Origin: an uncultured Desulfobacterales bacterium
Lineage (GTDB): Bacteria > Desulfobacterota > Desulfobacteria > Desulfobacterales > JAHEIW01
Length of the DNA stretch: 64,000 bases
Assembly (NCBI GenBank): GCA_947259495.1
Contig: CAMYLV010000016.1
Location: forward strand, 44,505-108,504
Direction of reading: 5' to 3'
Both the position numbers and the translations under genes were made by a program. Below are positions 6,377 through 22,945 of the stretch, piece after piece. The notes beneath the pieces were generated by a model. The model made no database searches. It had not been told where the DNA came from and saw only the letters and a program-made list of their open reading frames with translations. Position 1 is the stretch's first letter. Each line of letters begins with the position of its first letter.

Positions 6377-7117
6377 TTATTTCTTTCTTTTGTCTTTTAA
6401 ATAAATTGCCTTTGAGGGTCCAACGCCAATAGCTCTCTCTTCGATTTGGAATAGCTTTGTTGCTGATGCAAGTTCCCCCAACTTTTTGTAACCATAGTTT
6501 CGTGGATCAAACTCTGGTGCCTGCTTGGCAATGTTGCTACCCACGGATGCAAGATGAGCCCAACCAGAATCGTCCGAAGATGCCTCAACAGCGTTTCTTA
6601 ATAAATTAACGAGCTTCGTGTCTTTCTTAAGCCCGCTGGTTGTCTTGCGCCTTATTTTCTCACTATAATCACCTTCGGAACGCAGCACTTCAGTGAAAAC
6701 AAACTTATCACACGCAGAAACGAATGCTTCAGGGGTTTTTCCCTCCCCAAATCCATATACAAAAAGGCCCGCTTCCCTTATCCTTGATGCTAACTTGGTA
6801 AAATCACTATCGCTGGATACGATACAAAAACCGTCAAATTTGCCCGTGTAAAGCAAATCCATTGCGTCAATTATCAATGCACTGTCGGTTGCATTTTTCC
6901 CTGAAGTATACCCAAATTGCTGTATGGGCTGTATTGAATACTGTAAAAGAACTTCCTTCCACCCTTTAAGGCCTGCTCGCGTCCAGTCACCGTAAATCCT
7001 TTTTACATTAGCGGTTCCATATTTTGCGATTTCCGATAGTAGTCCGTCAACAATAGAAGGTTGGGCGTTGTCTGCATCTATTAATACGGCCAATTTTTCA
7101 ATTTTTTCGTCTGACAT
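6377..7117 (-). CDS. NYN-domain (LabA-like) protein with C-terminal OST-HTH/LOTUS-like region
   Basis: LAVLIDADNA...KNATDSALIIDAMD...IVSSDSDF matches the NYN pattern. The C-terminal roughly 70 aa resemble OST-HTH. Confidence 0.8.
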   Translation of the reverse strand: MSDEKIEKLAVLIDADNAQPSIVDGLLSEIAKYGTANVKRIYGDWTRAGLKGWKEVLLQYSIQPIQQFGYTSGKNATDSALIIDAMDLLYTGKFDGFCIVSSDSDFTKLASRIREAGLFVYGFGEGKTPEAFVSACDKFVFTEVLRSEGDYSEKIRRKTTSGLKKDTKLVNLLRNAVEASSDDSGWAHLASVGSNIAKQAPEFDPRNYGYKKLGELASATKLFQIEERAIGVGPSKAIYLKDKRKK

Positions 7118-7360
7118 ATTTTCCTTTTATGATTCTAACATTTATATGGGGCGGTGAATCCGCCGGCTTCTGATTGTTCTGCGAATGGATTTAGGCGCCT
7201 CATCGAATGGTTCGCGCAACAGCAGCCGCGATAGAACGATTCGAGCTTACTACTGTCGTCCCGACGCGGTCTGCTGCATGCGCTTTTTAGCTGCCTTTAG
7301 TCTCTATAGTAATAATTTCGACGTGCTCCATCGAAACGCTTCGTTTTTATGCAACACTTC

Positions 7361-7498
7361 TTAAAACAAGCGCCCTGATCCACAGGGACATGGATCGTTT
7401 CTGCCAAGTTTCTCGATCAGTTCCTTGTCCCCATGCACGATGCGAATCCCTCGCTTCACATTTGCTTCGGAAGGGAAACCTCTTCTGCGCTTGCTCAT
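7361..7498 (-). pseudogene. SEC-C motif protein remnant (frameshifted)
   Basis: A 45-codon minus-strand ORF ends ...[14 protein letters not shown]. The expected KKCC continues in another frame. Upstream minus-strand frames carry stop-broken protein-like sequence up to about 8000. Confidence 0.45.
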
Positions 7499-7972
7499 CG
7501 GCTCAAAATAACACCTTCCCTCTGCGTTGTTTCTTCCGTTTCATGGTACACCTCACTTTCTATGGCGGCCTCACCACGGGACAGCTAACTTTAATACCAA
7601 ATGGCAGTCGTCGATTTTGATCTTTTAATATGTCCAATTCCTCGCCGCCCTTTTGACGATATGAATCCCGTTCAATTTCCTTCGAGCTCCCCGCCGCATT
7701 CAATAGGCGTATTAACCATGAACATACCAGCTTCCGCCGCCTCAGACATTTCAAGCTGGCTTCGCAGCTGTGCAGTTTTTTCATCGTCTTTATTCATGCC
7801 GGCAACAAGAAAAGCAAAGCCACGCGGTGTCAGCCTCTCATCCGCTTTTTTTGCCAGACATTTGCAAATGGGGAGCCCCAGATCGGTAGATGAGCTACAG
7901 GCCTTAACAAATGCGTTAATGTCATCGGATGTGATTCCGGAAATGGGGGACCGTTACGGGTCACTTGCAATA

Positions 7973-8040
7973 GGAAATTCAGAAGCAACTAATATGGGCT
8001 TATACCCAAATCGATGGGGTTTAGTCAATCATAATCGAGA
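7973..8040 (+). repeat. Island-boundary direct repeat, copy a
   Basis: The core TTATACCCAAATCGATGGGGTTTAGTCAAT (8000-8029) is identical 30/30 to 25788-25817. It also resembles 22998-23040. Confidence 0.75.
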
Positions 8041-8101
8041 ATAACGATGGGTGGTGATTTACTGAAAGACTGTCGAAAAAGTTCAAACATTTAGTTAACA
8101 T

Positions 8102-8497
8102 CTATTTTAATATTGCGTTCTGAATATACCCTTGCGTTTTACGGGGGTAAGGTTTTCGATGATTTAGACTAAATCTGCGTTCTGACCGTATTTTTCTTGC
8201 TACTTGGCTTCTTCGGTCAAACCCTTTTCTACGGTCCCTGCCCAATCTTTTTTCTGGGAAATAAGTTATACAAAAAAATTTCCGCCTATCCTTTCCTGAA
8301 CGGGTTCCACCATTATCTGTCAGCTTTAATTTCCTGGTCGCCAATATCTGGTCTTTTTTAAGTACACTAATGATATATTTCAATTTTTTCCGAATTGTTT
8401 TGGCATGCATTTTTTTATGTTTGGATAAAACGTAACCACAATATTGACATTTATGCATCCCTTCTTGCGGTAGCTTACATCTTGGACAGTTTTTCAT
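8102..8497 (-). CDS. Zinc-ribbon protein with basic [DE]RR-repeat tail
   Basis: N-terminal CPRC...CQYC. Repeated GKDRRK, GRDRRKGFDRR and SERR motifs. The motif is shared with 24140..24355. Confidence 0.5.
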   Translation of the reverse strand: MKNCPRCKLPQEGMHKCQYCGYVLSKHKKMHAKTIRKKLKYIISVLKKDQILATRKLKLTDNGGTRSGKDRRKFFCITYFPEKRLGRDRRKGFDRRSQVARKIRSERRFSLNHRKPYPRKTQGYIQNAILK

Positions 8498-9110
8498 TTT
8501 TGCTAATGCTTTTTTTAAAAAGAGAGGGTATGATTTTCCACTAATTGAGGCTAACTCTACTACCTGATTACCTTTCTAATAATGGCAGAGATGACGATCA
8601 AAACCAATCCAAGCAATATCATCGACATAGTTTCTGGCTCCAAAATAGGTGGTGTTTGGATAAACTGTCAGTGTTACTTCTGAATTTGAAAAGGGAATTG
8701 GATTTGTGACTTATGAGGAGAAAGTTAAAATTTAATTCAATTTCATTAAATGCCTGAAAATCTATTCAGCCACACGATGAACCACAAAAATTCGAAACTC
8801 AAATTCAATTAAGCAACGGTAGGATTAATTAAATAAAAATGGTAAAGGATGTCAAGTAAAAAGCTGAGAGCTAATAAAAATTTAACAATATTAACAAATA
8901 GTTATGTAGTAATCTAAATATATAGTTATATTGTTTTCTTTGGATAAAGAAATTTTCTATATTGCATTAAATGAAAATTCAAATTTATACAGGGCTTTTA
9001 GATGCCTTGATTAGCTCCTCTTAGCGGACTATCATCTTCCTCTTTTTGAGCAACAGGCTGTATAATCAAACCACAGATACATTGAGAAGCTACCAGTTAT
9101 CACAATAAAG

Positions 9111-9181
9111 GAAATTATTGCAGATACCAAATGGATATCACAGGAATTTTAGCGCTCTGATAGTTGTACTTTGTTGGAAGT
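9111..9181 (+). repeat. Island intergenic repeat family, copy C1
   Basis: Matches 19584-19654 at 66 of 71 positions (GAAATTATTGCAGATAYCAAATG.ATATCACA.GAATTTTAGCGC.CTGATAGTTGTACTTTGTTGGA.GT). Confidence 0.75.
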
Positions 9182-9366
9182 ATAAAAGGTTTTGGAATTG
9201 CAAAGAAACCCGCGATACACAGAAAAAGCGCAAGGTTTAGCAGTGATAAAACAGACTTAACTTGACAATTGCAAATAATAGGTAATGCGTTCTCTTCTGG
9301 GGTCATTCAACAATTTTAAGAAGGTATCATTTACCTGCTTTTCCAGATGCTCCGTTCAGATTATCA

Positions 9367-9876
9367 CTACTTCTCGATAACCATTGTGCCAGCCATTTTA
9401 TCGCCTAGTCTTACCCCTTTCTCATCAGAGAAGATCTTAATAATTTCGATGATAACTAGGATAAAAACAGCAATTCCAATCAGAATATCAATGATCCAGC
9501 CAAGAATTGGTATGAATAAGAAGAACATCATCATGGGACCAAGAGCGAACATCCAGTTTCTTTTCGCAGATGCAGCATAATCGATCTTAGATGTTGGGTC
9601 TTCAATATTTACTACAGATAGTTGCAGCAATTTCTTCCCAATACTTTTATACTCAAGAGCTTCGATAGGTAGAGCATCTCGAAAGAGCATATAAAAAGCC
9701 CCAATAATTCCACCAACAAAAGGTATAAACCCTACAATTATAGAAGCCACAGCATCGATGACAAATGCTATTATCCGCTTAACTGGGTCAGCTTTTGTTA
9801 GTGTGGCATTATTGATCTTTGCTTCATTGGTTTCAGGTTTCTCCTCTTTTGCCTGGACTTCTTTTTCCTCGTTCAT
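9367..9876 (-). CDS. RDD-family membrane protein
   Basis: KRIIAFVIDAV...LFRD...LGDKMAGTMV with 3 hydrophobic segments. The ATG at 9876 follows GGGAGGA. Confidence 0.65.
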   Translation of the reverse strand: MNEEKEVQAKEEKPETNEAKINNATLTKADPVKRIIAFVIDAVASIIVGFIPFVGGIIGAFYMLFRDALPIEALEYKSIGKKLLQLSVVNIEDPTSKIDYAASAKRNWMFALGPMMMFFLFIPILGWIIDILIGIAVFILVIIEIIKIFSDEKGVRLGDKMAGTMVIEK

Positions 9877-10029
9877 AAGACATCCTCCCTGCTGAATACT
9901 TTTTTGTGGACGATTTAAAGGCAATCTCAAAAATGCATCTAACGCCCAATGGCCCACGGATTGTTCCCCAGAATTGAAATGCTCATTTCTCGTGGCAAGA
10001 TGTGGCTCAATTGTCTTTGACCCAATTTC

Positions 10030-11565
10030 CTAGCTTTTTTTATTTAAGCGTTTTATTTCATTCTGCCAGTACTTCATAATATTAGACCCCATAGAGCCAG
10101 CAGCAGTATTAATTTCTGATTTGATATTCTCCTCCATGTTGAGAGGGGTAAATTTAACAGTACCTGTTGCCGGCGAAGCGACAGTTTGTCCTGAGGCCAT
10201 GTCAAATGCCCTGACGGAATAGGCCACCGTTGTGAGCTCCTGGATCCGCCCATAGTATTTTAGCTTCATAGCTCCAGCACGACGTATTTTCGCCAAGAGC
10301 AATATATTCGCCTTATGTTTCGGAACAAATTGTTTGATAGTATACCAAGTCATTGGCAAATCGCCATATTGCGCTTTTTCCATAAGTACGGGTATTTCAG
10401 CAATAGAAATTACTCTCAAACCGCTATCAATCAAACATGTTTCAAGGTGGGCATGAAAAATCGGAATCACGTTTTCATCCCCCGAGACCACCACCAGTGC
10501 GGTAGGAACTTTTGGTAATACCGGGACTACCTGTTTTTTCGTTTGATCGGTATGCGCTTTCAATTGCTCAAGCTCCCCACGTTCATGCTCAATTCTGTCC
10601 GCCTCAGCAAATAAGTGTTTTTTCTCCGCTTCCGGTTCAGGCTCTGCTGTAATGTATTGACTGAATTGGACCGGACGCTTTAATACAAATACAAAATCCC
10701 CCTTGTCCAACTTTGGGTTGTTAATTTTTCCAAATTGGGGATGCTGGGCTTTGTGGGAATAATTGATTACTTTTTCCTGAAGGTATGAACCAAGTTCCTC
10801 TCCGGTGACATAGCCGTCCCGATTGAAATCGGCATAGCCATCCTTGATACCCTGGATAAAACAGATCTTAAACACCGATCGATCGGGCACTTGCTCGTTC
10901 TCTCTGCCTGCGGTAATAAACTCCCTGACCGGTGCGGCGATTTTTTCCTCGATATATTCTGTAGGCGCAGCCCGCACCATGGTAAAGATTGCACCAGAAA
11001 AACATGAATCAAAAACCATCAACACATGCTTGGCCCGGATACGTTTGGCTACGGTTTCAATTTGACGCATATCGATGGCGCGCCGCATAAAGTTTGTTTC
11101 ATCTTGAGTCGGGCGAGGGGCGTCCACCGGAACGATGTAGCCTAATTTTGTACCGTCGGCTTCTTCGAGTGTATGACCATGACCCGAGAACCAAAAAAGA
11201 ACACCCTTGTCTTTTACCTTGCCGGGGCCCGTTATCAGCTTATTCAATGCGTTATCCAAACGGTCCCAATCAGGGTCTTCAAGCAAGTCAACCTGCCAAC
11301 CCATCTCTTTGAGTGTGATGGCAATCTCGCGGGCATCATTTACTGGATTGGGTAGTCTGGGCCAACCGGCTCTGTAATCTGAGCAACCCACTATCAGTGC
11401 ATAATAACCAGAGTAAAGTGATATCTGCTGGGGAGAACCTGAATGGGTCTTGGCCTTAACGAAGATGCCTCTGGAAGTAGCATATATAGGAAGTGTAACG
11501 AACACAAAACTGATGACAATTAAAAATAGACAAGCACCCAGAACTCTTGTTTGACTGAAGATCAT
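10030..11565 (-). CDS. Caspase-like (peptidase C14) protein with N-terminal signal/anchor and uncharacterised C-terminal domain
   Basis: A catalytic His/Cys dyad context is present (FWFSGHGH and MVFDSCFSG). The N-terminus is hydrophobic. Confidence 0.8.
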   Translation of the reverse strand: MIFSQTRVLGACLFLIVISFVFVTLPIYATSRGIFVKAKTHSGSPQQISLYSGYYALIVGCSDYRAGWPRLPNPVNDAREIAITLKEMGWQVDLLEDPDWDRLDNALNKLITGPGKVKDKGVLFWFSGHGHTLEEADGTKLGYIVPVDAPRPTQDETNFMRRAIDMRQIETVAKRIRAKHVLMVFDSCFSGAIFTMVRAAPTEYIEEKIAAPVREFITAGRENEQVPDRSVFKICFIQGIKDGYADFNRDGYVTGEELGSYLQEKVINYSHKAQHPQFGKINNPKLDKGDFVFVLKRPVQFSQYITAEPEPEAEKKHLFAEADRIEHERGELEQLKAHTDQTKKQVVPVLPKVPTALVVVSGDENVIPIFHAHLETCLIDSGLRVISIAEIPVLMEKAQYGDLPMTWYTIKQFVPKHKANILLLAKIRRAGAMKLKYYGRIQELTTVAYSVRAFDMASGQTVASPATGTVKFTPLNMEENIKSEINTAAGSMGSNIMKYWQNEIKRLNKKS

Positions 11566-11864
11566 TTGTCCCCCTCTTTTATGTTATTATAGAAGAGTTT
11601 TGCCGAACTAAAAAATCTTAAAAGGACAAATTTGTCTTGATAACAATCTTATAGTCTATTAAACTGACAAGGTCAATTGAATCGTAAAAATAAACCTCAA
11701 AAGCTCGATTACCACACCTTGTGGCACAACTCGATATCATACTCGAATGTTGGCAAGCTATCTGCAACTACAACAAGTCCCTAATACCTGAATCTGAGCC
11801 GCTTATTTATTTGTCGATCAACTTCAATCGAGCTGACTATCATTTAAAATGAAAGGGGGAGATT

Positions 11865-12881
11865 ATGAAAAGGCGTAAATGTTGGGCTGCAATTGGATGT
11901 ATCGTAATGTTTTTTGTAGCGGGCCTGCTTTTTCATGGATGCAAAACGATTCAGCCTAAGCCCGAAGCGAAAGTCACTGAAGCGGGGGGACCTTCTATTG
12001 AAGAAGCCCAGAGTGCAGCCTACGGCGGCCCTATGGCAAGAATTGCCGTATCGCGATTCACTGACAAGACCGGAAAAGGTTGGTGGAGCCGTGATGTCGG
12101 CGATGGTATGGCTGACATGTTGGCCACGGCGCTTTTCCACACCAACCGCTACATTGTGCTGGAGCGGCAGCAACTGCGAGATGTTCTCCGGGAGCAGGAT
12201 CTGGGGGCATCCGGAAGAGTCAAACAGCAAACGGCCGCACCTATCGGCGAAATTGAGGGAGCAGAGCTTTTGATCACTGGCGCTGTGACCGAGTTTGAAG
12301 GTGCCGCTTCCGGTACCAAGGGCGGTTTAGGCGGCTGGGGAAGCGGAGTGGTTGGAGCTGTTTTAGGGGCTTATAAAAAATCGCACATGGCGATTGACGT
12401 GCGTGTCATCGATACAAAGACCTCCCGAATTGTAGCTGTTACCTCTGTAGAAGGATCTGCAACGGACATCGGTGGCTTGGGGGCTTTAGGAGGCGCTGTC
12501 GGTGGTGGAGCCTTAGGGGGTGCTTTGGGTGGTTGGTCAAAGACCCCAACCGAGAAAGCGTTGCGAATCTGTATAAAAAATTCGGTTGATTTTATTGTCA
12601 GTAAAACACCTGCCCAATACTACCATTTTGGCTCTGGTGGAACGGCAGTTCAACCTACATCAGCAACGCCGGCATCGACTGCTCCTCAGTCACAGGAGCC
12701 GTCTGTTCAGGTGACAGGTTCTTCGGTAAACATTCGTTCCGGACCGGGAACAAGTCACGATATAATCGGCAGTGTGAGGCGCGGAGATCGCCTGGTTCTC
12801 CTGGGCGAAAGCGGAAATTGGTTTCAGGTGCGCCTGCCCAATGGAAAAGTAGGATATATTATCAATAAGCTTTGTAAATAA
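11865..12881 (+). CDS. CsgG-like lipoprotein with C-terminal bacterial SH3 domain
   Basis: Lipobox LLFHGC. CsgG-like IAVSRFTDKTG...LERQQLRDVLREQDL...LLITGAVTEFE. Gly-rich loop. SH3b-like VNIRSGPGTSHDIIGSV...GNWFQV. Confidence 0.7.
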   Translation: MKRRKCWAAIGCIVMFFVAGLLFHGCKTIQPKPEAKVTEAGGPSIEEAQSAAYGGPMARIAVSRFTDKTGKGWWSRDVGDGMADMLATALFHTNRYIVLERQQLRDVLREQDLGASGRVKQQTAAPIGEIEGAELLITGAVTEFEGAASGTKGGLGGWGSGVVGAVLGAYKKSHMAIDVRVIDTKTSRIVAVTSVEGSATDIGGLGALGGAVGGGALGGALGGWSKTPTEKALRICIKNSVDFIVSKTPAQYYHFGSGGTAVQPTSATPASTAPQSQEPSVQVTGSSVNIRSGPGTSHDIIGSVRRGDRLVLLGESGNWFQVRLPNGKVGYIINKLCK

Positions 12882-12976
12882 GCCCTCGAGCTAGCTTTGT
12901 TGTTTTGCCTATCGCGTTTTTCCATCTTGTGTCAAACAGGGAGCCCGAACAATGCGGCTAAGTTGTGATTTAATTT

Positions 12977-13024
12977 AAATATCACAGATATTTTCAGAAT
13001 TGATATTTACGACATTGTTGGAGT
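12977..13024 (+). repeat. Island repeat family, partial copy C7
   Basis: AAATATCACAGATATTTTCAGAATTGATATTTACGACATTGTTGGAGTT aligns to the right half of C1, including the GTTGGAG box. Confidence 0.45.
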
Positions 13025-13043
13025 TATCTGTAGACCAGCGGTG

Positions 13044-13075
13044 AATAAAAAGGCAGAGCCAATATTGACTCTGCC
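13044..13075 (-). terminator. Rho-independent terminator candidate downstream of 13116..13595
   Basis: On the minus strand: GGCAGAG-N10-CTCTGCC followed by TTTTTATT. Confidence 0.55.
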
Positions 13076-13115
13076 CCAAAAATCTATAATGACCGACCTC
13101 CTATATATTTTTAAT

Positions 13116-13595
13116 TTATTCAGATTTAGGCAATTCAAATGTCCCTTTTATTATAATGCAATTTTGAAAAGTTCCCGGAGCGATAGATTTGCCACGCTGG
13201 AGCATACTCCATGTACCACCGCCTTTAATGTTCTCCCATTTGCCGGTACCCAATAAAAATTTCCATTCACCACCATTACCATTACCATCCCATCTTACAA
13301 CATTTATATCCCCATTAAGATACATGTATTTACAATACCCGCTCTGCTTTATTTCATCACCTGTTCTTTCGAATATACCCGCACCTATTTCGGAGACATT
13401 GTGAAGCATTTCCGAATTCGTATTGCTTCGAAGCATTCCTTTTAGTTCAAGACCTATAATCATCAATTCTTTGCTATTGTGAACCATAGTGGCTGTCCCT
13501 GATCTACAGGCCATTGATTCGAAAGGGTCTGAAGCCTGAACGGCTGGGATGAAAACGAAAATAGCGAGAAGTGTAATTAAAAATGATCGAATCAT
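13116..13595 (-). CDS. Secreted hypothetical protein
   Basis: Signal peptide MIRSFLITLLAIFVFIPAVQA. AAAGGAGG lies upstream of the ATG. Confidence 0.6.
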   Translation of the reverse strand: MIRSFLITLLAIFVFIPAVQASDPFESMACRSGTATMVHNSKELMIIGLELKGMLRSNTNSEMLHNVSEIGAGIFERTGDEIKQSGYCKYMYLNGDINVVRWDGNGNGGEWKFLLGTGKWENIKGGGTWSMLQRGKSIAPGTFQNCIIIKGTFELPKSE

Positions 13596-13698
13596 AGAGC
13601 GCCTCCTTTCATTTGATTATCAAAAATGTTTTTCTTCAAAAGGCTATTCAGAATCCCAACAGGATTGACAACCTCTTGTTGGGAGAAGGGTTGGCAAA

Positions 13699-13779
13699 AT
13701 TTGAGTGGTTTCTCCATTGAATCTTTACCTGATTGTTAGGTTAAAGTTTAAGGGAAACCAGTTTCTATTTCAGCAGGAA
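13699..13779 (-). promoter_or_regulatory. Conserved leader motif, copy U1 (candidate cis-regulatory RNA or operator region)
   Basis: About 88% identical by eye to 17547-17626. It lies 104-184 nt upstream of the 13595 start. Nested stems: GGTTTC/GAAACC and CTTTAACCT/AGGTAAAG. Confidence 0.5.
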
Positions 13780-13963
13780 AAGTATTTAGAAGTTGAGAAT
13801 CGATTCGACGATGAGTAGGAGTAGCCGATAAGAATTTATTAGAACTAACAACACGTGTGAGATTGAGCTTCAGATGAGTTCAATATTAAAGTTCAAATAT
13901 TATGGACACCATGTAATGTCAATAAAATTCAAGTAAATATATTGAGAATACATGGGTTTTGCC

Positions 13964-14031
13964 GAAATTTCAGATACCATTTGAGTATCACAGGTTTTTT
14001 TGGATTTCAAATGTTTGAATACGTTGGAGAT
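13964..14031 (+). repeat. Island repeat family, copy C3
   Basis: CAGATACCATTTGAGTATCACAGG...CGTTGGAGAT has the same box order as C1/C2. It lies directly 3' of the S41 gene. Confidence 0.55.
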
Positions 14032-14041
14032 ATTCCAAATT

Positions 14042-15037
14042 TTAATCTGAATCATTCCGATTTATAATATCCTCTTGAATCAAGTTCTTGATTCTTTCCA
14101 TTTCAACATCTTTACCAAGTCGATAATCATCTATTGTTCGAGATACCAGAATATCCGGTATTACTCCTCGATCTGGATTTTCACCTGGCAGTGTGTAAAT
14201 AGCTAAAGGAATAGAACCTTTTAATCTACTGTTTGAGAGCTTTGCCGTTACTGGGTCGCTATTAAAGCTTATTCTACCGGCAGTTTCTCTCCCAATTACT
14301 AACCCAAATTCATTGGCCTTGAAAACTGCTGCGAAAACCACCCCAGCAGAAAATGTTTTTTCAGAAATTAGAAGAAATACTTTCCCTTTAAATTTATTCG
14401 ACGCCTCATAAGGCACTCTCATTCTATGATTAACAGCTTCTATGTAGTCACCATTCTTTGCATTAGCTAAATGATTGCCAGCTTTTCCAGCATAGATACT
14501 GTTACGCATTATTTCACTAACTTTAAACTCGAATAGTTTTGCAATTTGGTATTCTGAAGGTGTTAAATTATCAAGAAGATAGAATCCCCAATAACCACTC
14601 CCGCCGCGATTTTCCCTAATGTCAATAACCAAATAAGAAGACTCAGCATATTTATTGAAAAATGAGTCTATAAATTGTTTATAGCTCTCAGCTTTTCCAT
14701 AACTGAAACCTGGCATTTTTAGGACTGGAATTTCTTCATCTTGGATAAAAAACGAATATTTACTGTATTTGTTGTCATGCTGAGTTACAGTTTTGTTAAA
14801 CTCTTTTAAAGTAACAGATTTGAGTTCTGTGATCCTAACTTTTGAGTCGAGTTTATATTTAACCTTCCAAGGCGGTGTGACTTTCAAATACTTAAGAAGC
14901 AGTATATGAAAATAGTCCTCAAAAAAAGACCATTTAACATGATCTAAAGAGGTATGAAATAATTGAGAGCACTCTTTAAACAGTGAAGTGAACCCATCCG
15001 ATTGCACAAAAATTAGTTGAGTGTTAAGAGGGGTCAC
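14042..15037 (-). CDS. S41-family (tail-specific-like) serine peptidase
   Basis: LVIDIRENRGGSG and ISEKTFSAGVVFA (Ser nucleophile context), plus GRETAG. The start is uncertain (GTG) and no signal peptide is evident. Confidence 0.75.
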   Translation of the reverse strand: MTPLNTQLIFVQSDGFTSLFKECSQLFHTSLDHVKWSFFEDYFHILLLKYLKVTPPWKVKYKLDSKVRITELKSVTLKEFNKTVTQHDNKYSKYSFFIQDEEIPVLKMPGFSYGKAESYKQFIDSFFNKYAESSYLVIDIRENRGGSGYWGFYLLDNLTPSEYQIAKLFEFKVSEIMRNSIYAGKAGNHLANAKNGDYIEAVNHRMRVPYEASNKFKGKVFLLISEKTFSAGVVFAAVFKANEFGLVIGRETAGRISFNSDPVTAKLSNSRLKGSIPLAIYTLPGENPDRGVIPDILVSRTIDDYRLGKDVEMERIKNLIQEDIINRNDSD

Positions 15038-15132
15038 ACTTTTTTAAAAAAAATCGAACAGATGCTGTGAATGACGCTTGAGGTTGAGAATTGCAAATTA
15101 TTTGACTGAAATCCAAATACGACAAAGGTACC

Positions 15133-15208
15133 GATACATTGAGAATACATGCATTTTGGCATTTTTACAGATACGAAATGGATGTCTGGATTTGTAAGCT
15201 CACTGGTA
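15133..15208 (+). repeat. Island repeat family, degenerate copy C6
   Basis: GATACATTGAGAATACATG...CAGATACGAAATGGATGTCTGG shares its left boxes with 13940-13990 and 9078-9145. Confidence 0.35.
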
Positions 15209-15569
15209 TCTGAATTGTTTGTAAAATCCAACAGAAAATATCGCATTAAATTTCAGCCATTACATAGGAGAATAGTACGATAATCAGTGCGCTTTTTCAA
15301 AATTTATTTTTAATATTAATAATTCTTTATATGAGCATCTCGGCCTGCGACAATTTTAAAAATGGGTGTCAATTCGCTTCTCCTGTCAGAATTTTTTTGG
15401 AGCTGTTGTGGATATTTCAATGGCAAGGAGTTTGAGCGTAAGAACAGGAAGGCGGGTCACTTTGATAACAAGATTTTCAATGCTTGCCATAGAAGCCATA
15501 CAATGAGGATTATAATCCAACAGATAATTGTTACGTGGAGTATTTTTAACATTCTGACTACTGAATTTC

Positions 15570-15803
15570 CTAACTGAATATAAGTTTATCTAATTGATGT
15601 TCTGAAATATGGGCAAGACGGCCAATCTCTTGTGCTTGCATAATAAGTTCAAAGGGAGGCTCCTTGCCCTTGTAGCGAAGTTTTGAAATTTTTAAGACTA
15701 AATTCAAATAATCACGTTTGAGTTTCATAAAATTTTTGTCGTCTGTTTCCATTTTGATTTTCTGCAAATTTAGGTGTTTTGGGTGACCCCCAAGCGAGGC
15801 CAC
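15570..15803 (-). CDS. Small helical hypothetical protein (start uncertain, possibly Met at 15752)
   Basis: Supported by the ORF only. No family was recognised. Confidence 0.3.
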   Translation of the reverse strand: MASLGGHPKHLNLQKIKMETDDKNFMKLKRDYLNLVLKISKLRYKGKEPPFELIMQAQEIGRLAHISEHQLDKLIFS

Positions 15804-15955
15804 TCACGGACAAAAGCCATGGGCATGGCGCTTATTGATCATGGTATGTCCATATAAAATATCGGGAATTTTTGGTTAGAACTTGAATTAGATTTGCCAA
15901 CGATCTGATCAACCGGGGCATTTAAAGGTATTGGGTATTGGGGGGATGTTATTGG

Positions 15956-16507
15956 GGGGTCGGGCCGCGCTAACAATTCGACATTATACGACATACATCA
16001 TAAAATCAAGCCGTTTAGGCCTTAGAAGCCCCATTTTAGGGGCAAAATCACCCTTCTAAGAAATAGTTTAATTGACTTCAAAAGTCATATGCGGTGGCTG
16101 CCGGCTTAGTCCAAAGATGAATTGAAGATAGCGCATCATTAATGGATTGAGGAGGAATTGAAAAAATCACAGCTGGTTCGCCAGAGCAAGGGGACGCAAA
16201 GCATTGCTGTTGGAGAAAAATCGTTTGTTGAACAAATCAAAAACCGTCTTGGTATTCGTTCTAAAGGTTGGAAGATTCTCGAAGATGAAGGTGACTACCA
16301 GTTATGTGACCGTCAGACCGGTTATTGCGACAGCGCCCAATTTATTAATTCAAATTCTTTTTATTGGGATTTAGACAATAAACCCGCAGACTTCCCTATT
16401 CCTTAAAGAGCCCATTTTACCCATAGAATGGCATTGCTAAGCCCAAAAATCGGTCCTTTTTTTAACTCTTTTTATTAATTATCAGACACTTACTGCGGCC
16501 CGACCCC
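15956..16507. mobile_element. Decayed small element bounded by perfect 13-bp inverted repeats around a COG1943 transposase remnant
   Basis: GGGGTCGGGCCGC (15956-15968) and GCGGCCCGACCCC (16495-16507). The outer flanks are word repeats (GGTATTGGGTATTGGGG and CATTTTG x4). Confidence 0.45.
16158..16406 (+). pseudogene. C-terminal remnant of an IS200-like/COG1943 (Y1, RAYT-type) transposase
   Basis: QSIAVGEKSFVEQIKNRLGIRSKGWKI...YQL...NSFYWD matches the conserved C-terminal tail of this family as I remember it. The catalytic N-terminal part is absent. Confidence 0.55.
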
Positions 16508-16552
16508 ATTTTGCACCATTTTGCATTTTGCATTTTGCTATAGTTGAAATGA

Positions 16553-16849
16553 TTACCAGAGGCCTACAGCATAAATATTGAACTCTGTTTTGGTTCGAAG
16601 ATGCTTCTTGATATTTTCATAAAGTTCGATACGACGTGGGTCCCCAGTCCAGTGCTGCCAGCGCTCTAAAGATGTCCACCTGCTTATTACCAAACATTCC
16701 TCCGGGCGATCTAAGTGAAAAAATGTTTCGCCTGAAATATAACCTGGTTGTCTGACTGCAAGAGCTCTTAATTCTATGATGTGAGGCAAGAGTATCTTCG
16801 CATTGACCCCGTTCTTTGTTACATGCTTTATTAAAACTCCAATCGCCAT
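16553..16849 (-). CDS. Antibiotic-biosynthesis-monooxygenase (ABM) fold protein
   Basis: The protein is 98 aa. PGYISGETF...VISRWTSLERWQHW is typical of the ABM domain. GGAGG lies before the ATG. Confidence 0.65.
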   Translation of the reverse strand: MAIGVLIKHVTKNGVNAKILLPHIIELRALAVRQPGYISGETFFHLDRPEECLVISRWTSLERWQHWTGDPRRIELYENIKKHLRTKTEFNIYAVGLW

Positions 16850-16954
16850 GTCCCCCTCCCCTCTTTAGTTTATATTTGATACTAAAGGAAATTTAATTTT
16901 TGAGGTATGGATGAAATTCATTGAGTCAGATGTGAAACTGATACACACAACTTA

Positions 16955-17401
16955 TCACATATTGAAGATAGATGATAAACAGCAGACCCTACAAACATGT
17001 GTCTTCGCGAAGGAAAAGGGCAAACTCTGACTTTTGATGTATTCAACTGCCCCACTCAACTCCTCCAACCACCGACTGAGACTATAACCAATACCATGCA
17101 GGTAAGCACTAATGCCAGCAGACTGGAGAGCTGCATAAGAAGCTTCCTGGATTTGGTCATCGTCTATTCCACTGAGCCGTTACTGCTCAGTATGGAAGGG
17201 CGTTCAGTACTGACAACGGCCAGCAGCTGCAGCTCCAAAAGCGACTAATGCTTTATCACGTGCAGGCAGCTTGCTGTCGCTAAGGAACCATGCAGTAAGT
17301 CGCCACTGGTGTTCGAGCTGCGAATCCGGCAGTCCATCAAGCCAGCCCGGCACTCCGCCTAGTGTCTGAGAAATTTGAGCAAGGATTTCTTGTCTCGTCA
17401 T
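16955..17401 (-). pseudogene. AhpD/carboxymuconolactone-decarboxylase-family gene with in-frame TGA at the CxxC position (candidate Sec) and an in-frame TAA 8 codons later
   Basis: MTRQEILAQ... (ATG 17401 after AAGGAG). ...AAAAGRCQY-TGA(17204-17206)-TPFHTEQ-TAA(17180-17182)-RLSGIDDDQIQEASYAALQSAGISAYLHG. The family pattern C-x-Y-C-x3-H...G.t.eEi.EA continues in frame through both stops. Confidence 0.5.
17171..17191 (-). promoter_or_regulatory. SECIS-like hairpin 12 nt downstream of the in-frame UGA
   Basis: RNA ACUGAGC-AGUAACG-GCUCAGU: 7-bp stem, 7-nt loop with G at loop position 2. The loop G is about 24 nt from the UGA. Confidence 0.35.
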
Positions 17402-17546
17402 TGGATTTTTCTCCTTTTGTGGATAGGGTGCGATTCGCATCAATGGTTTACAATAAATAGCACCAAAACAGGTCAGGTTTGCTGACTTAAACGAGTGGAT
17501 TACACTCCTAACAGAAAAAAATTTTTTTAGGAGCCGGGTAGGCACA

Positions 17547-17626
17547 TTTTGAGAGGTTTCTCCATTGAAGCTTTACCTTATTGGTAGGTTAAAGTTTACA
17601 GGAAACCAGAATCTATTGCAGTGGAA
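17547..17626 (-). promoter_or_regulatory. Conserved leader motif, copy U2
   Basis: Lies 146-225 nt upstream of the AhpD-like ATG. See 13699-13779. Confidence 0.5.
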
Positions 17627-17888
17627 TGTGTCGCTTAGAGTGAGAGGATAAATTCATGATGAAAGCTAATTTCAGGGCAAAATGAAAAAGCGCTGTTTTC
17701 CTGTTGCCACATTGTGGTATTTTTGTCAAGCTAATTTTGGATCATTGTAGGTCAGGTCTTAAATCGAGAGGATTATGAATTATCATTGAACTGGCATTGA
17801 AAATGATGTTGATGAGAAGGGTGAAGAGGAATTTTATTTTCTTTGAATAAGTTCGTTTTTATTTTTCCAGTTATTTTAACTTGAATTG

Positions 17889-19538
17889 TTAATTCTGCAT
17901 TTTAATGATCACCGAGGTTATGTCATCTTCTATTCTTGACTCACTTATAAATTTATCCAAGATGTCAAAAATTGCATCCAATATTTGTGTTGCGTCTGAA
18001 GATGAGTTTTGTCGAATTGCAGATAGGATTGGCTCTTTGCCTAACATCTCTCCATTTTTATTGCGCGCCTCCCAGATTCCATCTGTACTGAGAAAAACGA
18101 TTTGACCATTTGAAAAATCGGTTTCTTTATTATCCTCGTAGACCCATTCGGCATCCAAACCAAGAGCTATTCCCGATCCTCCAAGTTCACTGAATGAATC
18201 TGAGCCAGGATCATAAACAATGGCGGGATCATGTCCCGCCCGCACCCAATCAAGGCGTTTGGATTCTGTATCAAGAGTTAAAAAAAACATTGTCATAAAT
18301 TGCCCGGAATCTTCAACATCTTTAACCAACTGACGGTTCACATCAGAAATGATATTGGCCGTGCTGCCCGGTAAAAATACCCGCTGCCGCAATGAAGAAC
18401 GAACAGTGGCCATAAGTAATGCAGAAGAAATACCATGCCCTGAGACATCGCCAATCGCAACCCCAATTTTCTGCTCATCATTATCTTCAATAGATATAAA
18501 ATCATAATAATCACCACCGGTTTCATCGCAGTAAACGCTTTTTCCGGCTATATCGATCCCGTTAACCTTTATATTACTTTTTGGAAGAAGATTTTGTTGA
18601 ACCTCCTTTGCTAAATTAAGAGACTGCTGCATTCTTTCACGTTCCTTCAGACCCGCGGTCATTTCATTGATCACATCACCCGTATACCCAATTTCATCAT
18701 TAGAGGTAACTTGCACTTTTTTGTCAAAGCGGCCGTTTCTTACCCCCCGCAGGGTAATGATGATCTCCTTGAAGGGTATCGTCAGATTTCTGCCTACCAG
18801 CATCGTCAAACATATGCCAAAACCGATAAATATGAATGTATTAGTGAATATAACAGGCCTTAGCTGCTGTATTGCCAATGCCGGGTCCGAGTATTTTAGG
18901 GAGATTCTATGAAAAAGATGCAAAATTGTTAAGAGGGGAATCAGATTGCAAGCAAAAAGCATTGCAACCAGCCGGGTGCGGATCCGGATGCGCAGGGTCT
19001 TCGGGATGGCAGTAAGTCCACCTTCCGGGAAAAAATGCGGTGCCAGTCGCTTTTGTGAAATATGCTCCAACAAAAAAAAAGCAACAATCACGGTGATAGA
19101 GCCAGTGCTCAGGCTTAATAACAACGCGCGTTGCATCAAATCCGATCCTAAACCAAGGCTCCAGTAAATAGCCGTCCAAATTATAGCCGCCAACATCCAC
19201 ATACTCAAATCCAGGGCCATGAGAAAAAAGGGTTCGTTGAGCACTTTTTGGCGGGCCCTGTTCTCCAGTTCCGCCGACACTTCTGAGCGTTTGAATTTGG
19301 CATTTAGATATAACCGAATGGGTCTTTCATATAGCAGAGTCATCACCACGACAAATAAAAAGGCCAATGGCGTAAAAATTGTATCCATCACATCGACAGC
19401 AGTAAATTTCCATATATCTGCAGGCAACGGTTCCGCCCTGAACATCAGCTTATGAACAAATACAACGGAAAATAAATTGGCAAATGCATTCGCAAAAATC
19501 ATTTCGTTTTTTAGGTGGAAAAGTTTAAATTTTGTCAT
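17889..19538 (-). CDS. Membrane-bound PP2C/SpoIIE-family phosphatase with HAMP linker
   Basis: Multiple N-terminal TM segments. HAMP-like IPFKEIIITLRGVRNGRFDKKV. PP2C motifs GGDYYDF, GDVSGHG and DGIWEA. Confidence 0.85.
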   Translation of the reverse strand: MTKFKLFHLKNEMIFANAFANLFSVVFVHKLMFRAEPLPADIWKFTAVDVMDTIFTPLAFLFVVVMTLLYERPIRLYLNAKFKRSEVSAELENRARQKVLNEPFFLMALDLSMWMLAAIIWTAIYWSLGLGSDLMQRALLLSLSTGSITVIVAFFLLEHISQKRLAPHFFPEGGLTAIPKTLRIRIRTRLVAMLFACNLIPLLTILHLFHRISLKYSDPALAIQQLRPVIFTNTFIFIGFGICLTMLVGRNLTIPFKEIIITLRGVRNGRFDKKVQVTSNDEIGYTGDVINEMTAGLKERERMQQSLNLAKEVQQNLLPKSNIKVNGIDIAGKSVYCDETGGDYYDFISIEDNDEQKIGVAIGDVSGHGISSALLMATVRSSLRQRVFLPGSTANIISDVNRQLVKDVEDSGQFMTMFFLTLDTESKRLDWVRAGHDPAIVYDPGSDSFSELGGSGIALGLDAEWVYEDNKETDFSNGQIVFLSTDGIWEARNKNGEMLGKEPILSAIRQNSSSDATQILDAIFDILDKFISESRIEDDITSVIIKMQN

Positions 19539-19583
19539 GATACTGCTCTCCTACAAGCTGATAATTGAATACCAGCATGGAAC

Positions 19584-19654
19584 GAAATTATTGCAGATAT
19601 CAAATGTATATCACAAGAATTTTAGCGCCCTGATAGTTGTACTTTGTTGGAGGT
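19584..19654 (+). repeat. Island repeat family, copy C2
   Basis: Matches C1 (9111-9181) at 66 of 71 positions. It fills most of the 144-bp spacer between two minus-strand genes. Confidence 0.75.
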
Positions 19655-19682
19655 GTCTGCATTTCAATTATATGATGACTGG

Positions 19683-21143
19683 CTATTGGGGAAGTTGGTT
19701 CCCATACCATTTCCAATGTCCGTTATCTTTAATTAGCTTACTGCCGGTCATAAAGAGGGCTTCAAAATATTTATCTTTAAGCCAAACATCAATTTTAGCC
19801 TCATCGCCTTCAGGCTCAAACTTGGTGATGATAATTTTAGCCTCAGAAGTATAAGATAAAGTTCCTTCTAAAAATTTTAAAGCCATTTGTTTGGTAACGC
19901 CATAATGAAGAAATCGATCCGAAATTAAATCGGCCATTGTCACCACATCTTTATTAAATCTAGCTTGATTATAATCTGTTATGAATGCTTTTACATCAGT
20001 GGGCAATTCCACGGCTTTTAGTGGTTTTTTCGGTGGTCTTTTCCTTTGAACAGAGACTGCAACTAAATCAAATAAAGGACTATAATGAATTGAAGTTGGG
20101 GGATGAGGCTGGGCTGTTTTCGATGTTACAGCAATAACAAGGTCAAGTTCCGGAACGACCACTATAAATTGCCCCCGCCTTCCCCAAGCCCTGAAACTGC
20201 TGCAGCCATCGACTTTCTTCACCCACCATTGATACCCGTATCCAAACGAACCATATATTGGCGAGCTGAAAGTCTTTATCTGTTGATCGGTGGATTCTTT
20301 CACCCAATATTCAGAGACAATAGATTGACCGTTCCAATATCCATTATTCAAGTACAGGAAACCGATTTTTGCTAAATCTCGTGCTGAGAGGCCCAAACCG
20401 AAACCGCCAATGTAGTATCCTTGTGGGTCTTGATGCCAATAGGCTGATTGTATCCCTAACGGTTCAAAAAGGTTTCTCTTTGCAAAATCCAAGGTGCTGG
20501 ATTTAGTCGACTTGGACAGAATTATGGACAGAAGATGTGATGTTGATGAATTGTAATTAAATACATCCCCCGGATTTTTTTCCTGCGGAAGTTGAATCGT
20601 GAATTTTGCCCAGTTCGAGGAAGTATACCAGAACCGCATTACAGGTCCCCGATCGTTCCACCTAAAACCTGCACTCATTGTCAAAAGGTGTCTAAGACTG
20701 ATCTTCTTTTTCCTCGGATCAAGGTCCTCTGTGATATATTCAGGAAAAAATTCGGTTAGTTTTTGATCCACGCTTTTAAGATAACCTTTGTCCAGTGCTA
20801 TACCAATTAGGGCTGAGGTAACACTTTTGGTAACTGAATGAACGACAGCGTATTTTTCAGGGCTTCCCCAAGAGTAGTATTTCTCAAAAACTAAATAGCC
20901 GTTCTTAACAACCAACAAACTGAAAGCATCGGGAAGTCTATTTTGGACAAATTCGTCCGCTATCCTTAGCTTAGCAGAATCCATACCCTGAATCTCCGGG
21001 GTAGAAGTCCTCCAACCGCTGGTAGGCCAGTATTCGCGCTTTTTTGGTTGTTCGCAAAATGCATATTCAGTCAAGAAGGCAAAAAGGGAGAAAGTAAGAA
21101 TACAAAATGTTTTTTTACTATAACTCAAATTAAATATTTTCAT
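19683..21143 (-). CDS. Beta-lactamase-fold serine hydrolase with C-terminal extra domain
   Basis: SxxK motif HSVTKSV. N-terminal signal-like segment. The ATG at 21143 follows AAAGGAGA. Confidence 0.8.
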   Translation of the reverse strand: MKIFNLSYSKKTFCILTFSLFAFLTEYAFCEQPKKREYWPTSGWRTSTPEIQGMDSAKLRIADEFVQNRLPDAFSLLVVKNGYLVFEKYYSWGSPEKYAVVHSVTKSVTSALIGIALDKGYLKSVDQKLTEFFPEYITEDLDPRKKKISLRHLLTMSAGFRWNDRGPVMRFWYTSSNWAKFTIQLPQEKNPGDVFNYNSSTSHLLSIILSKSTKSSTLDFAKRNLFEPLGIQSAYWHQDPQGYYIGGFGLGLSARDLAKIGFLYLNNGYWNGQSIVSEYWVKESTDQQIKTFSSPIYGSFGYGYQWWVKKVDGCSSFRAWGRRGQFIVVVPELDLVIAVTSKTAQPHPPTSIHYSPLFDLVAVSVQRKRPPKKPLKAVELPTDVKAFITDYNQARFNKDVVTMADLISDRFLHYGVTKQMALKFLEGTLSYTSEAKIIITKFEPEGDEAKIDVWLKDKYFEALFMTGSKLIKDNGHWKWYGNQLPQ

Positions 21144-21302
21144 TTTTTTCTCCTTTCTGCTGAAAATATGACTCACAAAACATGTTATTTTGTCTTAAAC
21201 ATCATAGTGATGCTAATTTGCGATGAGAATAACAAAGTTTTGCCAATTTTGCCGATATGATTTGGATATATGATACTTACCACGCAATCAACTGTCTTTT
21301 CT

Positions 21303-21377
21303 AATTTCTGTCATCTGCGATTAAAATAGAATATCACAAAAAATTTCAGAACTGTTATCTGCCGTTTAGTTGGAGGT
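21303..21377 (+). repeat. Island repeat family, diverged copy C4
   Basis: ...AATATCACAAAAAATTTCAGAACTGTTATCTGCCGTTTAGTTGGAGGT shares the ATATCACA box and the GTTGGAGGT box. Confidence 0.45.
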
Positions 21378-21637
21378 ATTACGAATTTCCAAATCGAAAA
21401 GGTTTGATACAAATAGTTTGGCCTTATCACAAAAATGACCCAAAAAGGCCAACCACAACATATGGCAGGATTCTCCGCAGATTAACGGCGGCGGGCGTTG
21501 AGTACGCCTCGCCACAAACTTTTGTGGGGCCTTGCGCAGCAGAAAAAAGTCTCATTTCTGAATCGGACACTCATTAGTGCCAAGATCCTTTCGGGGATGA
21601 GCACTAATTAAAACCTTCATTTAGAAACATAACCAGT

Positions 21638-22660
21638 TTAGGCTGTCATATTGACTATTGTCCGACCCTTGTGTTTGCCTTGTAACATACGGTCGATGGC
21701 CTGATCCAGATCGACCAGGGTAATTTCTTCCACGACCGTTTCCATCATTGGGATTTTCCATTCATCGGCGAGTTTCTCCCAAGTCTTGAGCCGGTTCGGC
21801 ATCGGGCAATTCTGGGAATCGATACCCACGAGGCTGACCCCACGCAGGATGAAGGGATATACATTGATCGGCAACTCAGGTGATGCCACATTACCGCGGT
21901 GGCCAGGATATCTCCTCCTACCGTGTCGATGCTGCCTGCCCAGCGAGACTTGTGAAGCGGACGACCACTTTGATCTGTGGCCTCTTCGATGCTGATAATA
22001 CGCTGTGCGCCGATTTCTTTTAGATATTCCGACTCATCTACCAAACCATTGACGGCAACGACCGTGTAACCCAATTTTGACAAAATTGCCACGGCAATGC
22101 TGCCAACGCCGCCGCTGGCGCCTGATACCAGCACCTCACCATGTTCCGGCAAAATGCTCCCATGAACGGTCAGTTGAAAGACTGACAGGGCCGCCGTAAA
22201 CCCGGCCGTTCCATAGCACATGGCCTCTCTTGACGTCAGTCCCTTGGGCAGGGGAACCACCCATTGGCCGGGTACCCGAATATATTGGCCAAACCCCCCT
22301 GCCGTGTTCATGCCTAAATCATAACTGGTGAACCCGAATATATTGGCCAAACCCCCCTGCCGTGTTCATGCCTAAATCATAACTGGTGACGATAACATCA
22401 TCTCTGGGTTTAAGGGCGATATCAGTGCTTTCCACCACCACACCTGCTGCGTCGATGCCGGGTGTATGGGGATAGCTGCGTGTTACGCCTTTATTGCCGC
22501 TGGCTGATAACGCATCTTTGTAATTCAAAGATGAATAGTGCACCTCGACCACAACGTCTCCCGGGGGAAGGTCGTCTATGGTTTTGTTGAGGATCTGACG
22601 CGTGTATTTTTTGTCGTTAGTTTCTTCTACTACCAAGGCCTTAAATAATTCATCTGTCAT
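21638..22660 (-). pseudogene. YhdH/AcuI-type NADPH:quinone (acrylyl-CoA) oxidoreductase, disrupted twice
   Basis: Three collinear ORF pieces (22319..22672, 21745..22350, 21638..21889). SYDLGMNTAGGFGQYIRV is encoded twice. The first break is a 58-bp duplication. The second break, near 21890, removes part of the conserved region before PFILRGV. Confidence 0.8.
22274..22389. repeat. Perfect 58-bp tandem duplication inside the oxidoreductase pseudogene
   Basis: 22274-22331 and 22332-22389 are identical when read base by base. 58 is not a multiple of 3, so the duplication shifts the frame. Confidence 0.9.
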
Positions 22661-22841: not shown

Positions 22842-22945
22842 GTGCCACCTCCGTTTATAAGGTTTTAAACTTTGGAATTCAGTATGTTGATTATTCACAG
22901 AAACGCAGTATCAGACGAGCAACAAGATTCGATTCAAGGATTTGC

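Follow-up and report, generated by a model that had tools for sequence, protein, structure and literature searches.

Leader-peptide (uORF) attenuators, such as ermC/cat-type translational attenuation, the mgtL-mgtA leader, and tnaC, work through the position of the ribosome. A regulatory leader peptide usually belongs to a single kind of operon, as in amino-acid biosynthesis, antibiotic resistance, or secretion monitors. Hairpins that sequester a Shine-Dalgarno (SD) sequence are found in RNA thermometers, among which ROSE and fourU are known types. Upstream open reading frames (uORFs) have also been treated in the literature (e.g., PMC12121999; PMC10219788). In addition, promoter reuse has been described in prokaryotes, where highly similar upstream regions precede non-homologous genes both within and between related genomes (PMC3575422).

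The window analyzed in this study, the whole stretch of 64,000 nucleotides from an uncultured Desulfobacterales bacterium, includes two copies (A and B) of a shared upstream leader of about 150 nt. Both are located in a low-GC island at about 7000-26000, which has a GC content of 36-44% compared with about 50% on either side and also contains many small hypothetical genes. No tRNA gene was present, and no integrase was recognized among the island-boundary ORFs read by eye. Each leader copy lies 100-150 nt upstream of its gene, the two genes being unrelated to each other, and about 250 nt separate the upstream gene from the leader in each case, including a conserved promoter-like block. The positions of the individual features are given in Table 1. 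As read from the sequence, the element has about an even chance of being a modular leader-peptide regulatory leader, previously undescribed, in which a uORF is flanked by two hairpins.

Table 1. Features of the two leader copies and their flanking elements in the window.
Feature	Position	Strand	Basis or remark
Copy A, whole leader motif (5' flank, hairpin 1, uORF start, hairpin 2)	13635..13783	-	Covariance model R1, 143.9 bits, E ~1e-35; repeat family D3
Copy A, hairpin 1	13707..13759	-	MFE folds, -14.2 kcal/mol; family-wide pairing and compensatory changes
Copy A, P1	GGTTTCCC 13752-13759 with GGaGAAACC 13707-13715	-	MFE fold
Copy A, P2	CTTTaACCT 13738-13746 with AGGTAAAG 13723-13730	-	MFE fold
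Copy A, apical loop of hairpin 1 (AACAATC)		-	MFE fold
Copy A, uORF	13592..13717	-	ATG 13715-13717; sequence and uORF tabulation
Copy A, SD-like AGGT of the uORF	13727-13730	-	Sequence
Copy A, hairpin 2 (P3), TCCCAACA...TGTTGGGA	13654..13684	-	Fold; homologous covarying helix in the family
Copy A, class I promoter-like block	13895..13922	-	TTGACA 13917-13922, TAATAT 13897-13902; tentative
Gene downstream of copy A, 159-aa protein	13116..13595	-	ORF list and Pfam
Copy B, whole leader motif	17487..17631	-	R1, 133.7 bits
Copy B, hairpin 1	17555..17607	-	Folds, -13.0 kcal/mol
Copy B, P1	GGTTTCC 17601-17607 with GGaGAAACC 17555-17563	-	Folds
Copy B, P2	CTTTaACCT 17586-17594 with AGGTAAAG 17571-17578	-	Folds
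Copy B, uORF, 12 codons and TAA, product MEKPLKMCLPGS*	17527..17565	-	Sequence; family tabulation
Copy B, hairpin 2 (P3), GCTCCTAA...TTAGGAGT	17504..17534	-	Sequence and fold; uORF stop in the 5' arm
Copy B, class II promoter-like block	17705..17729	-	TTGACA 17724-17729, then palindrome ACCACAATGTGG 17707-17718
Gene downstream of copy B, AhpD-like (CMD family)	16990..17401	-	Translation and Pfam; orthologues behind the same leader

An earlier note on this DNA, made from the sequence alone, had placed two copies of a shared block at these positions on the minus strand, and their presence was confirmed by a core match, a repeat search, and a covariance model. The 62-nt IUPAC core CTGGTTTCCNNTAAACTTTAACCTANCAATNAGGTAAAGNTTCAATGGAGAAACCNCTCAAA matched only 13700-13761 and 17548-17609 in the window, with an expectation of 0 from shuffles. 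The repeat search recovered 13676-13773 and 17524-17621 as the family D3, with 84% identity across 98 nt. The covariance model R1 found exactly two copies in the 64 kb at the scores listed in Table 1, while the next best score was 11.8 bits (E=0.6). The start codons reported for the secreted-protein gene (13595) and the AhpD-like gene (17401) were correct, and the nested stems GGTTTCC/GGaGAAACC and CTTTaACCT/AGGTAAAG, with one bulge each, were observed in the MFE folds of both copies. A clustering of substitutions in the apical loop, which had also been suggested, was not found: the six core differences were spread over the 5' internal loop (two), the apical loop (two), the 3' internal loop (one), and the position just after P1 (one). 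Similarly, the hairpins described downstream of the two blocks do exist at 13654-13684 and 17504-17534, but the two are homologous to each other, representing a single conserved helix that covaries, rather than different hairpins.

Further copies of the leader were identified in both genomes and metagenomes. A 20-base pattern searched against one genome per species returned 12 true further copies and one chance match, where the hosts were Desulfobacterales or "delta proteobacterium" metagenome-assembled genomes (MAGs), or short contigs binned elsewhere. A 24-base pattern searched against metagenomes matched at least 120 contigs, which came mostly from marine or estuarine sediment samples, judging by the names among the matches listed. 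Between 106 and 118 unique leader instances among the matches listed were used in the analyses below. As the search patterns selected close relatives, loop conservation in this main set is inflated; a covariance-model search of the fetched loci recovered extra copies beyond those that the patterns had caught. Covariance-model searches also revealed that the copies cluster, with two to four per contig, mostly co-oriented and 0.6-3 kb apart, and that arrays of three or four copies occur within 3-6 kb before different genes. In one contig (L046), an ORF at 616-1899 encodes a group II intron-type reverse transcriptase/maturase of 427 aa, as identified by sequence motifs, and is located directly upstream of an array of four leader-bearing genes.

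Judging from these matches, the leader is a member of a large, lineage-specific, and undescribed family in sulfate-reducing Desulfobacterales. No Rfam 15 family reached its gathering score in the whole window, a permissive scan of 13300-18000 gave no match with E<=10 overlapping either copy, and the scan of five related loci gave nothing relevant, with only one chance match to U4. The earlier note had not recognized a known riboswitch class in the block, and the scans of the window and of the related loci agree with this. In the literature, a search for the peptide string gave no hit, and keyword searches revealed no relevant account of a motif or uORF leader of this kind from Desulfobacterales.

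The expectation of a conserved structured element on the transcribed strand, located in the 5' leader of unrelated genes, was also upheld, and a check for covariation was positive, as none of 500 shuffles reached the observed score. An alignment of 106 sequences (A3) was evaluated by pair counting against an explicit three-helix structure. Pairing was observed in 88% of its cells, compared with 38-55% when the partners were slid, and in 86% of the cells in a second alignment (A4), with double-sided changes at 16 pairs in A3 and 20 pairs in A4. In hairpin 2 (P3), with the consensus GCUCCURACAGG-loop-CCUGUURGGAGC, both sides changed in 11 of the 12 pairs in A3. Its middle pairs alternate between U-G/G-U and U-A/A-U, and the pairing therefore fits only the RNA of this strand. 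The search pattern had fixed the 3' strand of P1 in A3, and P1 was therefore evaluated on A4. In this second alignment, which comprises 50 model hits enriched in pattern-independent copies and, being fitted to the model, leans toward the structure, double changes were found in five of eight pairs of P1, six of seven of P2, and eight of 12 of P3. The mean energies of hairpins 1 and 2 were -12.4 and -17.0 kcal/mol, compared with -6 and -8 kcal/mol in shuffles. RNAalifold gave no structure on the raw MAFFT alignment because this alignment is gappy. Extra helices or pseudoknots were sought by mutual information and rejected, as the top pairs represented subfamily signals and not base pairs.

Hairpin 1 of the main type includes a conserved internal loop (CNUAAA / AUUCAAU) and an AAUAAU apical loop. 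In divergent copies, the loop and spacer sequences are not conserved, and what is retained is limited to the ORF, hairpin 2, and a hairpin that pairs an SD with an anti-SD. Some copies (for example, L125, L126, and L081) lack the 5' half of hairpin 1 altogether.

The near-invariant segment that resembled a linker between the hairpins reads, from its ATG, as ATG GAG AAA CCN CTM AAA NTN TGC NNN CCN NNN TCC TGA/TAA, with the translation M-E-K-P-L-K-[LMIF]-C-x-P-x-[SF]-stop. It comprises exactly 12 codons in 93 of 118 unique copies, while the other 25 (21%) are longer or shorter, and it ends with TGA in 70, TAA in 40, and TAG in eight. In copy B, the codons are ATG GAG AAA CCT CTC AAA ATG TGC CTA CCC GGC TCC TAA. 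In copy A, the usual stop is replaced by CAA, so that the uORF extends to 41 codons (MEKPLKFCQPFSQQ...) and a TGA at 13592-13594, with its end overlapping the main ATG (ATGA).

The search patterns had left certain sites free, and each of these falls on a third codon position (CCN, CTM) or on the first or third position of the hydrophobic NTN codon. Among 22 pattern-independent copies, the ATG was retained in 20, and differences from the consensus fell on codon positions 3:1:2 in a ratio of 24:8:13 (binomial p=0.0045). These copies included 13 synonymous codon changes (AAA>AAG, GAG>GAA, TGC>TGT, and CCN), and the segments most deeply conserved among them were ATGGAGA..C.CTCAAA...TGC and hairpin 2. 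Conservation at the peptide level, accompanied by synonymous changes, was observed for E2, L5, K6, and C8, as well as for the hydrophobic residue 7. The codons CTC AAA hardly vary, including at their third positions, which hints at an additional constraint, either a codon-specific arrest motif or an RNA-level constraint that could act in place of a peptide constraint or together with it. Against a coding interpretation, the alternation of TGA and TAA at the stop is also allowed by the pairing of hairpin 2, and 12 codons offer limited statistical power for coding tests. On balance, the uORF is probably real, and its translation is predicted.

The uORF overlaps the RNA structure at both ends: its start falls within the 3' strand of P1, and its stop codon is contained in the 5' arm of hairpin 2. 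In P1, the 3' strand consists of the G of the AUG and codons 2-4 (GGaGAAACC with GGUUUCC), while P2 pairs the SD of the uORF, with AGGU against ACCU in the main type and GGAGG against CCUC in divergent copies. This SD is a weak AGG(T) at a spacing of 10 nt in the main type; the divergent copies carry a strong AAGGAGG, GGAGG, or AGGAGG at 8-10 nt before the ATG. Since each of these strong SDs pairs with CCUC in a P2-like hairpin, P2 represents an SD/anti-SD hairpin for the uORF. Additionally, the 3' arm of hairpin 2 contains a conserved SD-like RGGAG. Selenocysteine recoding at a uORF UGA preceding the hairpin was considered and rejected, as 40% of the copies have TAA or TAG.

A co-oriented downstream ORF with a good SD was found for 108 of 121 copies, with most of the others cut by contig ends, and every copy with enough flank was located upstream of, and co-oriented with, an SD-bearing ORF. 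A distribution in random contexts or orientations, named in the earlier note as a sign of a plain dispersed repeat, was therefore not observed among the copies checked. The downstream proteins were highly diverse: 75 Pfam families were assigned among 101 proteins, the top family having only four members, and BLAST divided 108 proteins into 68 clusters, including 50 singletons. No metabolic theme was recognized among these families and clusters. The largest cluster (nine of 108) is the family of the 159-aa protein of copy A, whose members are 159-173 aa with signal-like N-termini; the protein itself has such an N-terminus and no match in Pfam. Homologues of this protein (32-66% identity) in five other long contigs had no leader, and a co-inheritance of the leader with this gene family was thus rejected. 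Across these comparisons, the leader is evidently not tied to a particular gene. A signal-peptide-like N-terminus was found in 56 of the 108 downstream proteins by a crude hydrophobicity test, and several others are thiol or redox proteins, including AhpD-like, AhpC/TSA (peroxiredoxin), rhodanese, and DJ-1/PfpI proteins.

The AhpD-like selenoprotein formed the third largest downstream cluster, with six members. In the window, the gene at 16990-17401 on the minus strand contains an in-frame TGA at 17204-17206, probably encoding selenocysteine, in the context C-Q-Y-[TGA]-T-P-F-H, a CxxU form of the CxxCxxxH core. A SECIS-like hairpin (ACUGAGC-AGUAACG-GCUCAGU, 17171-17191) directly follows this motif. 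The AhpD-like (CMD) gene probably encodes a selenoprotein. An in-frame TAA was also found at 17180-17182 in the loop of the SECIS-like hairpin. The orthologues in L032, L064, L106, and L001, the last being an independent MAG of nearly the same organism, have TTA or TTG (Leu) at this position, and the TAA of the window therefore represents a strain-specific nonsense SNP or a sequencing error.

Several other features were observed in the island. A perfect 58-nt tandem duplication at 22274-22389 splits a gene resembling zinc-type alcohol dehydrogenases or quinone oxidoreductases into the overlapping ORFs 22319-22672 and 21745-22350, and this gene is therefore a frameshifted pseudogene or an assembly artefact. 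Three groups of intergenic repeats, D1 (7931-8029, 22929-23027, and 25719-25817), D4/D5 (9093-9181, 19566-19654, and 23124-23171), and D6 (13937-13977, 15134-15174, and 23091-23131), have the appearance of additional promoter and leader modules that are shared between genes. Read on the minus strand, D1 opens with TTGACT-N18-TATAAA and includes CTGAAATGGTTC, a sequence similar to the 5' edge of the leader motif. D6 closely precedes the class I promoter of copy A and of two further genes.

An alignment of the upstream DNA revealed conserved promoter-like blocks of at least three kinds, located 160-200 nt before the motif. Class I, to which copy A belongs, is composed of TTGACA, a short spacer, TAATAT, and then TTCAATCTCACAC, and it recurs in 20 or more unrelated contigs, about 200 nt before the anchor. 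In copy A itself, where it is followed by the conserved block CTCAATCTCACAC, the promoter assignment is tentative because the 14-nt spacer is short; a consensus promoter scan, which needs a spacer of 16-18 nt, did not call this block. Class II, to which copy B belongs, is composed of TTGACA and the palindrome ACCACAWTGTG and was found at about -159 in 24 other contigs; in copy B, the scan reported this palindrome as a hairpin. An upstream block of another kind makes up class III. A sigma-54 promoter inside the block was rejected on a reading of the sequence, as the spacing of GG...GC is wrong.

The earlier note had also considered that the shared block might lie upstream of the transcription start. 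The promoter-like blocks were found upstream of the motif, which is therefore very probably transcribed, and the element can be regarded with considerable confidence as a transcribed cis-acting leader RNA. Since at least three promoter classes feed the same uORF module, the conserved unit is the leader and not the promoter. In the class II promoters (17707-17718 in the window, and, for example, L025, L034, and L061), a palindrome (ACCACAATGTGGT) follows directly after TTGACA in the spacer, and in the D1 promoters its place is taken by another palindrome, CCCATCGATTTGGG. Both look like candidate repressor operators, and the leader-bearing genes may therefore also be controlled at transcription.

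Upstream of the leader is a conserved promoter-like block, and downstream of it is a gene that has a strong ribosome-binding site (RBS) of its own. Under the leader-peptide reading, downstream expression would depend on ribosomes entering and finishing the uORF. Hairpin 1 would keep initiation at the uORF low until opened, with temperature, a factor, a ligand, or co-transcriptional timing as candidate openers. Alternatively or additionally, the conserved peptide would cause the ribosome to pause close to the stop codon. On reaching the stop, a ribosome would have to melt hairpin 2, and what becomes of the message would then change by way of ribosome retention on RGGAG, decay of the mRNA, or access of Rho. 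Besides Rho, mRNA decay, and ribosome retention, a trans factor is also a candidate for the coupling to the main gene. Because the module occurs before more than 60 unrelated gene families, often as arrays in low-GC islands, the genes involved would represent a co-regulated accessory set and not a pathway.

Several conventional output devices were searched for in the sequences, and none was detected. An intrinsic terminator as the expression platform was rejected, as terminator-like sites followed only seven of 108 copies, and several of these were doubtful. Release of the main SD in the manner of erm was rejected by constrained partition-function folding of 61 leaders, where the modeled unpaired probability of the main RBS was 0.43 when free and 0.45 with hairpin 2 opened by masking the uORF stop region, a change of 0.02. 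The distance from the uORF stop to the main start ranged from 46 to 564 nt, which rejects tight translational coupling in general, with the exception of copy A and its ATGA overlap. A second mini-ORF from the RGGAG arm was rejected as well, as candidates occurred in 25 of 79 leaders compared with 15 of 79 in the control and mostly started with TTG. A bias for C over G after hairpin 2, as expected for Rho utilization, was not seen (C 19%, G 18%).

A more specific form of the leader-peptide reading is possible but doubtful, in which the M-E-K-P-L-K-hydrophobic-C... peptide would be a new sequence-specific regulatory nascent peptide that stalls or slows the ribosome at or near the stop and defines a modular regulon of more than 60 accessory gene families. 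The signal would then be a small molecule, or it would be related to redox state or sulfur, and the invariant Cys8 in the exit tunnel could be a sensor. Such a regulon would be genome-wide and post-transcriptional in uncultured marine Desulfobacterales, with both hairpins taking part.

A reused ("mobile") promoter-leader cassette without sensing, which provides transcription, stability, and ribosome entry and is spread by recombination in low-GC islands, was considered an unlikely explanation. The occurrence of the same leader before 68 unrelated protein clusters, the arrays of three or four copies within 3-6 kb, the location of both copies of the window in an island of 36-44% GC within a genome of roughly 50% GC, and the presence of homologous genes elsewhere without the leader all speak for such a cassette, and near-identical upstream regions before non-homologous genes have already been described (PMC3575422). 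However, at least three promoter or 5'-proximal classes feed the same uORF module, and the purifying selection on the hairpins and the peptide in divergent copies argues for a specific function. The cassette is also partly compatible with the uORF model, as it explains the spread of the leader but not its function.

The earlier note had compared the layout to an aptamer plus an expression platform. The structured leader is upheld by the present analysis and the riboswitch model is not: a gene-specific platform was not found, as the second hairpin belongs to the conserved motif itself, terminator-like sites are limited to the seven of 108 copies, and the accessibility of the RBS hardly differs between the two modeled states (0.43 vs 0.45). 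A riboswitch or protein-binding leader would have the loops of hairpin 1 bind a ligand or protein, with the ORF pattern being incidental or the uORF being gated by the aptamer. This is improbable, even though both the internal and the apical loop show strong sequence conservation, the stems covary, the diversity of associated genes would suit a global signal such as a second messenger, and the lack of an Rfam match would make it a new class. The loop conservation is inflated in the main set, where the patterns had picked close relatives, and it disappears in the divergent copies, along with the conserved spacers; the 5' half of hairpin 1 is missing in some copies, such as L125, L126, and L081. 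Furthermore, neither the terminators nor RBS accessibility provided an expression platform, the 75 Pfam families downstream point to no single ligand or pathway, and the codon-position bias and the retained ATG and SD would be left unexplained. The riboswitch reading is weakened because the segment with the highest conservation has the character of a coding sequence of 12 codons that is preceded by an SD of its own. For motif hunting in general, the appearance of an aptamer plus a linker can mask a mini-ORF.

A role of the 12-aa peptide itself, which is MEKPLKLCLPCS-like and often contains CxxC, as a functional micropeptide co-transcribed with many genes is very improbable. The conservation of E2, L5, K6, hydrophobic residue 7, and C8 as a peptide, with synonymous changes, would agree with this role, but the second Cys and the C-terminus are variable, the length is altered in 21% of the copies, and dozens of near-identical copies in 5' leaders with an initiation region buried in a hairpin fit a cis-regulatory role better.

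A DNA-level repeat, such as an integron attC, a REP or MITE, or an operator palindrome of a transcription factor, is hardly credible in spite of the nested imperfect inverted repeats in many copies and the arrays of small, diverse, cassette-like genes in a low-GC island: the attC, REP, and MITE readings were rejected on the fixed orientation relative to genes, the G-U-type pairings that work on the sense strand only, the absence of RYYYAAC/GTTRRRY core sites (the arms of both copies end in GGTTTCC/GGAGAAACC, and the sole GTTRRRY-like string is in the apical region of the opposite strand), the promoter-like block before each copy, the distance of 50-500 nt to the gene instead of abutting ORF ends, and the lack of a tRNA gene or of an integrase recognized by eye among the island-boundary ORFs.

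The leader-peptide reading thus concerns a single, strongly conserved module of a uORF plus hairpins that occurs before dozens of unrelated, mostly uncharacterized accessory genes, about half of which look secreted and several of which are thiol or redox genes. If the module is a genuine sensor, it would represent a global control circuit in abundant uncultured sediment sulfate reducers, many "hypothetical" genes could be grouped into one regulon, and a new short nascent-peptide or RNA device would be added to the known set.

A comparison with known systems revealed partial similarities to several of them. Like integron attC sites, the leader has imperfect nested inverted repeats beside diverse small genes in arrays, whereas its core sites, its position relative to ORFs, its strand behavior, and the promoter-less layout of cassettes do not fit. 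As with reused promoters, a near-identical upstream region is found before non-homologous genes, both in the window and on related contigs, yet the conserved unit is a transcribed leader with a uORF and hairpins that is combined with at least three promoter classes. The leader resembles SD-sequestering hairpins and RNA thermometers in that P2 is short, AU-rich, and pairs an SD (AGGU:ACCU or GGAGG:CCUC). Unlike in RNA thermometers, P2 would gate the uORF rather than the main gene, and it sits inside a larger conserved hairpin with another conserved helix after it. With riboswitches, it shares a conserved structured RNA in the 5' leader, covarying stems, conserved loops, and a position in cis to the gene; it differs in having a coding-like segment as its best-conserved part and in having no gene theme, expression platform, or Rfam match.

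By analogy, the Desulfobacterales leader would work most like the leader-peptide attenuators erm/cat, mgtL, and tnaC. It differs from these in that no terminator or helix sequestering the main SD was detected, the uORF contains no run of regulatory codons, the SD and AUG of the uORF itself are buried in a conserved hairpin, and one leader serves more than 60 unrelated gene families instead of one operon type. In common with them, it includes a short ORF with its own SD that overlaps conserved stem-loops in a long 5' leader, a peptide conserved beyond the needs of a spacer, and a uORF 3' end and stop placed in a helix that the ribosome must unwind.
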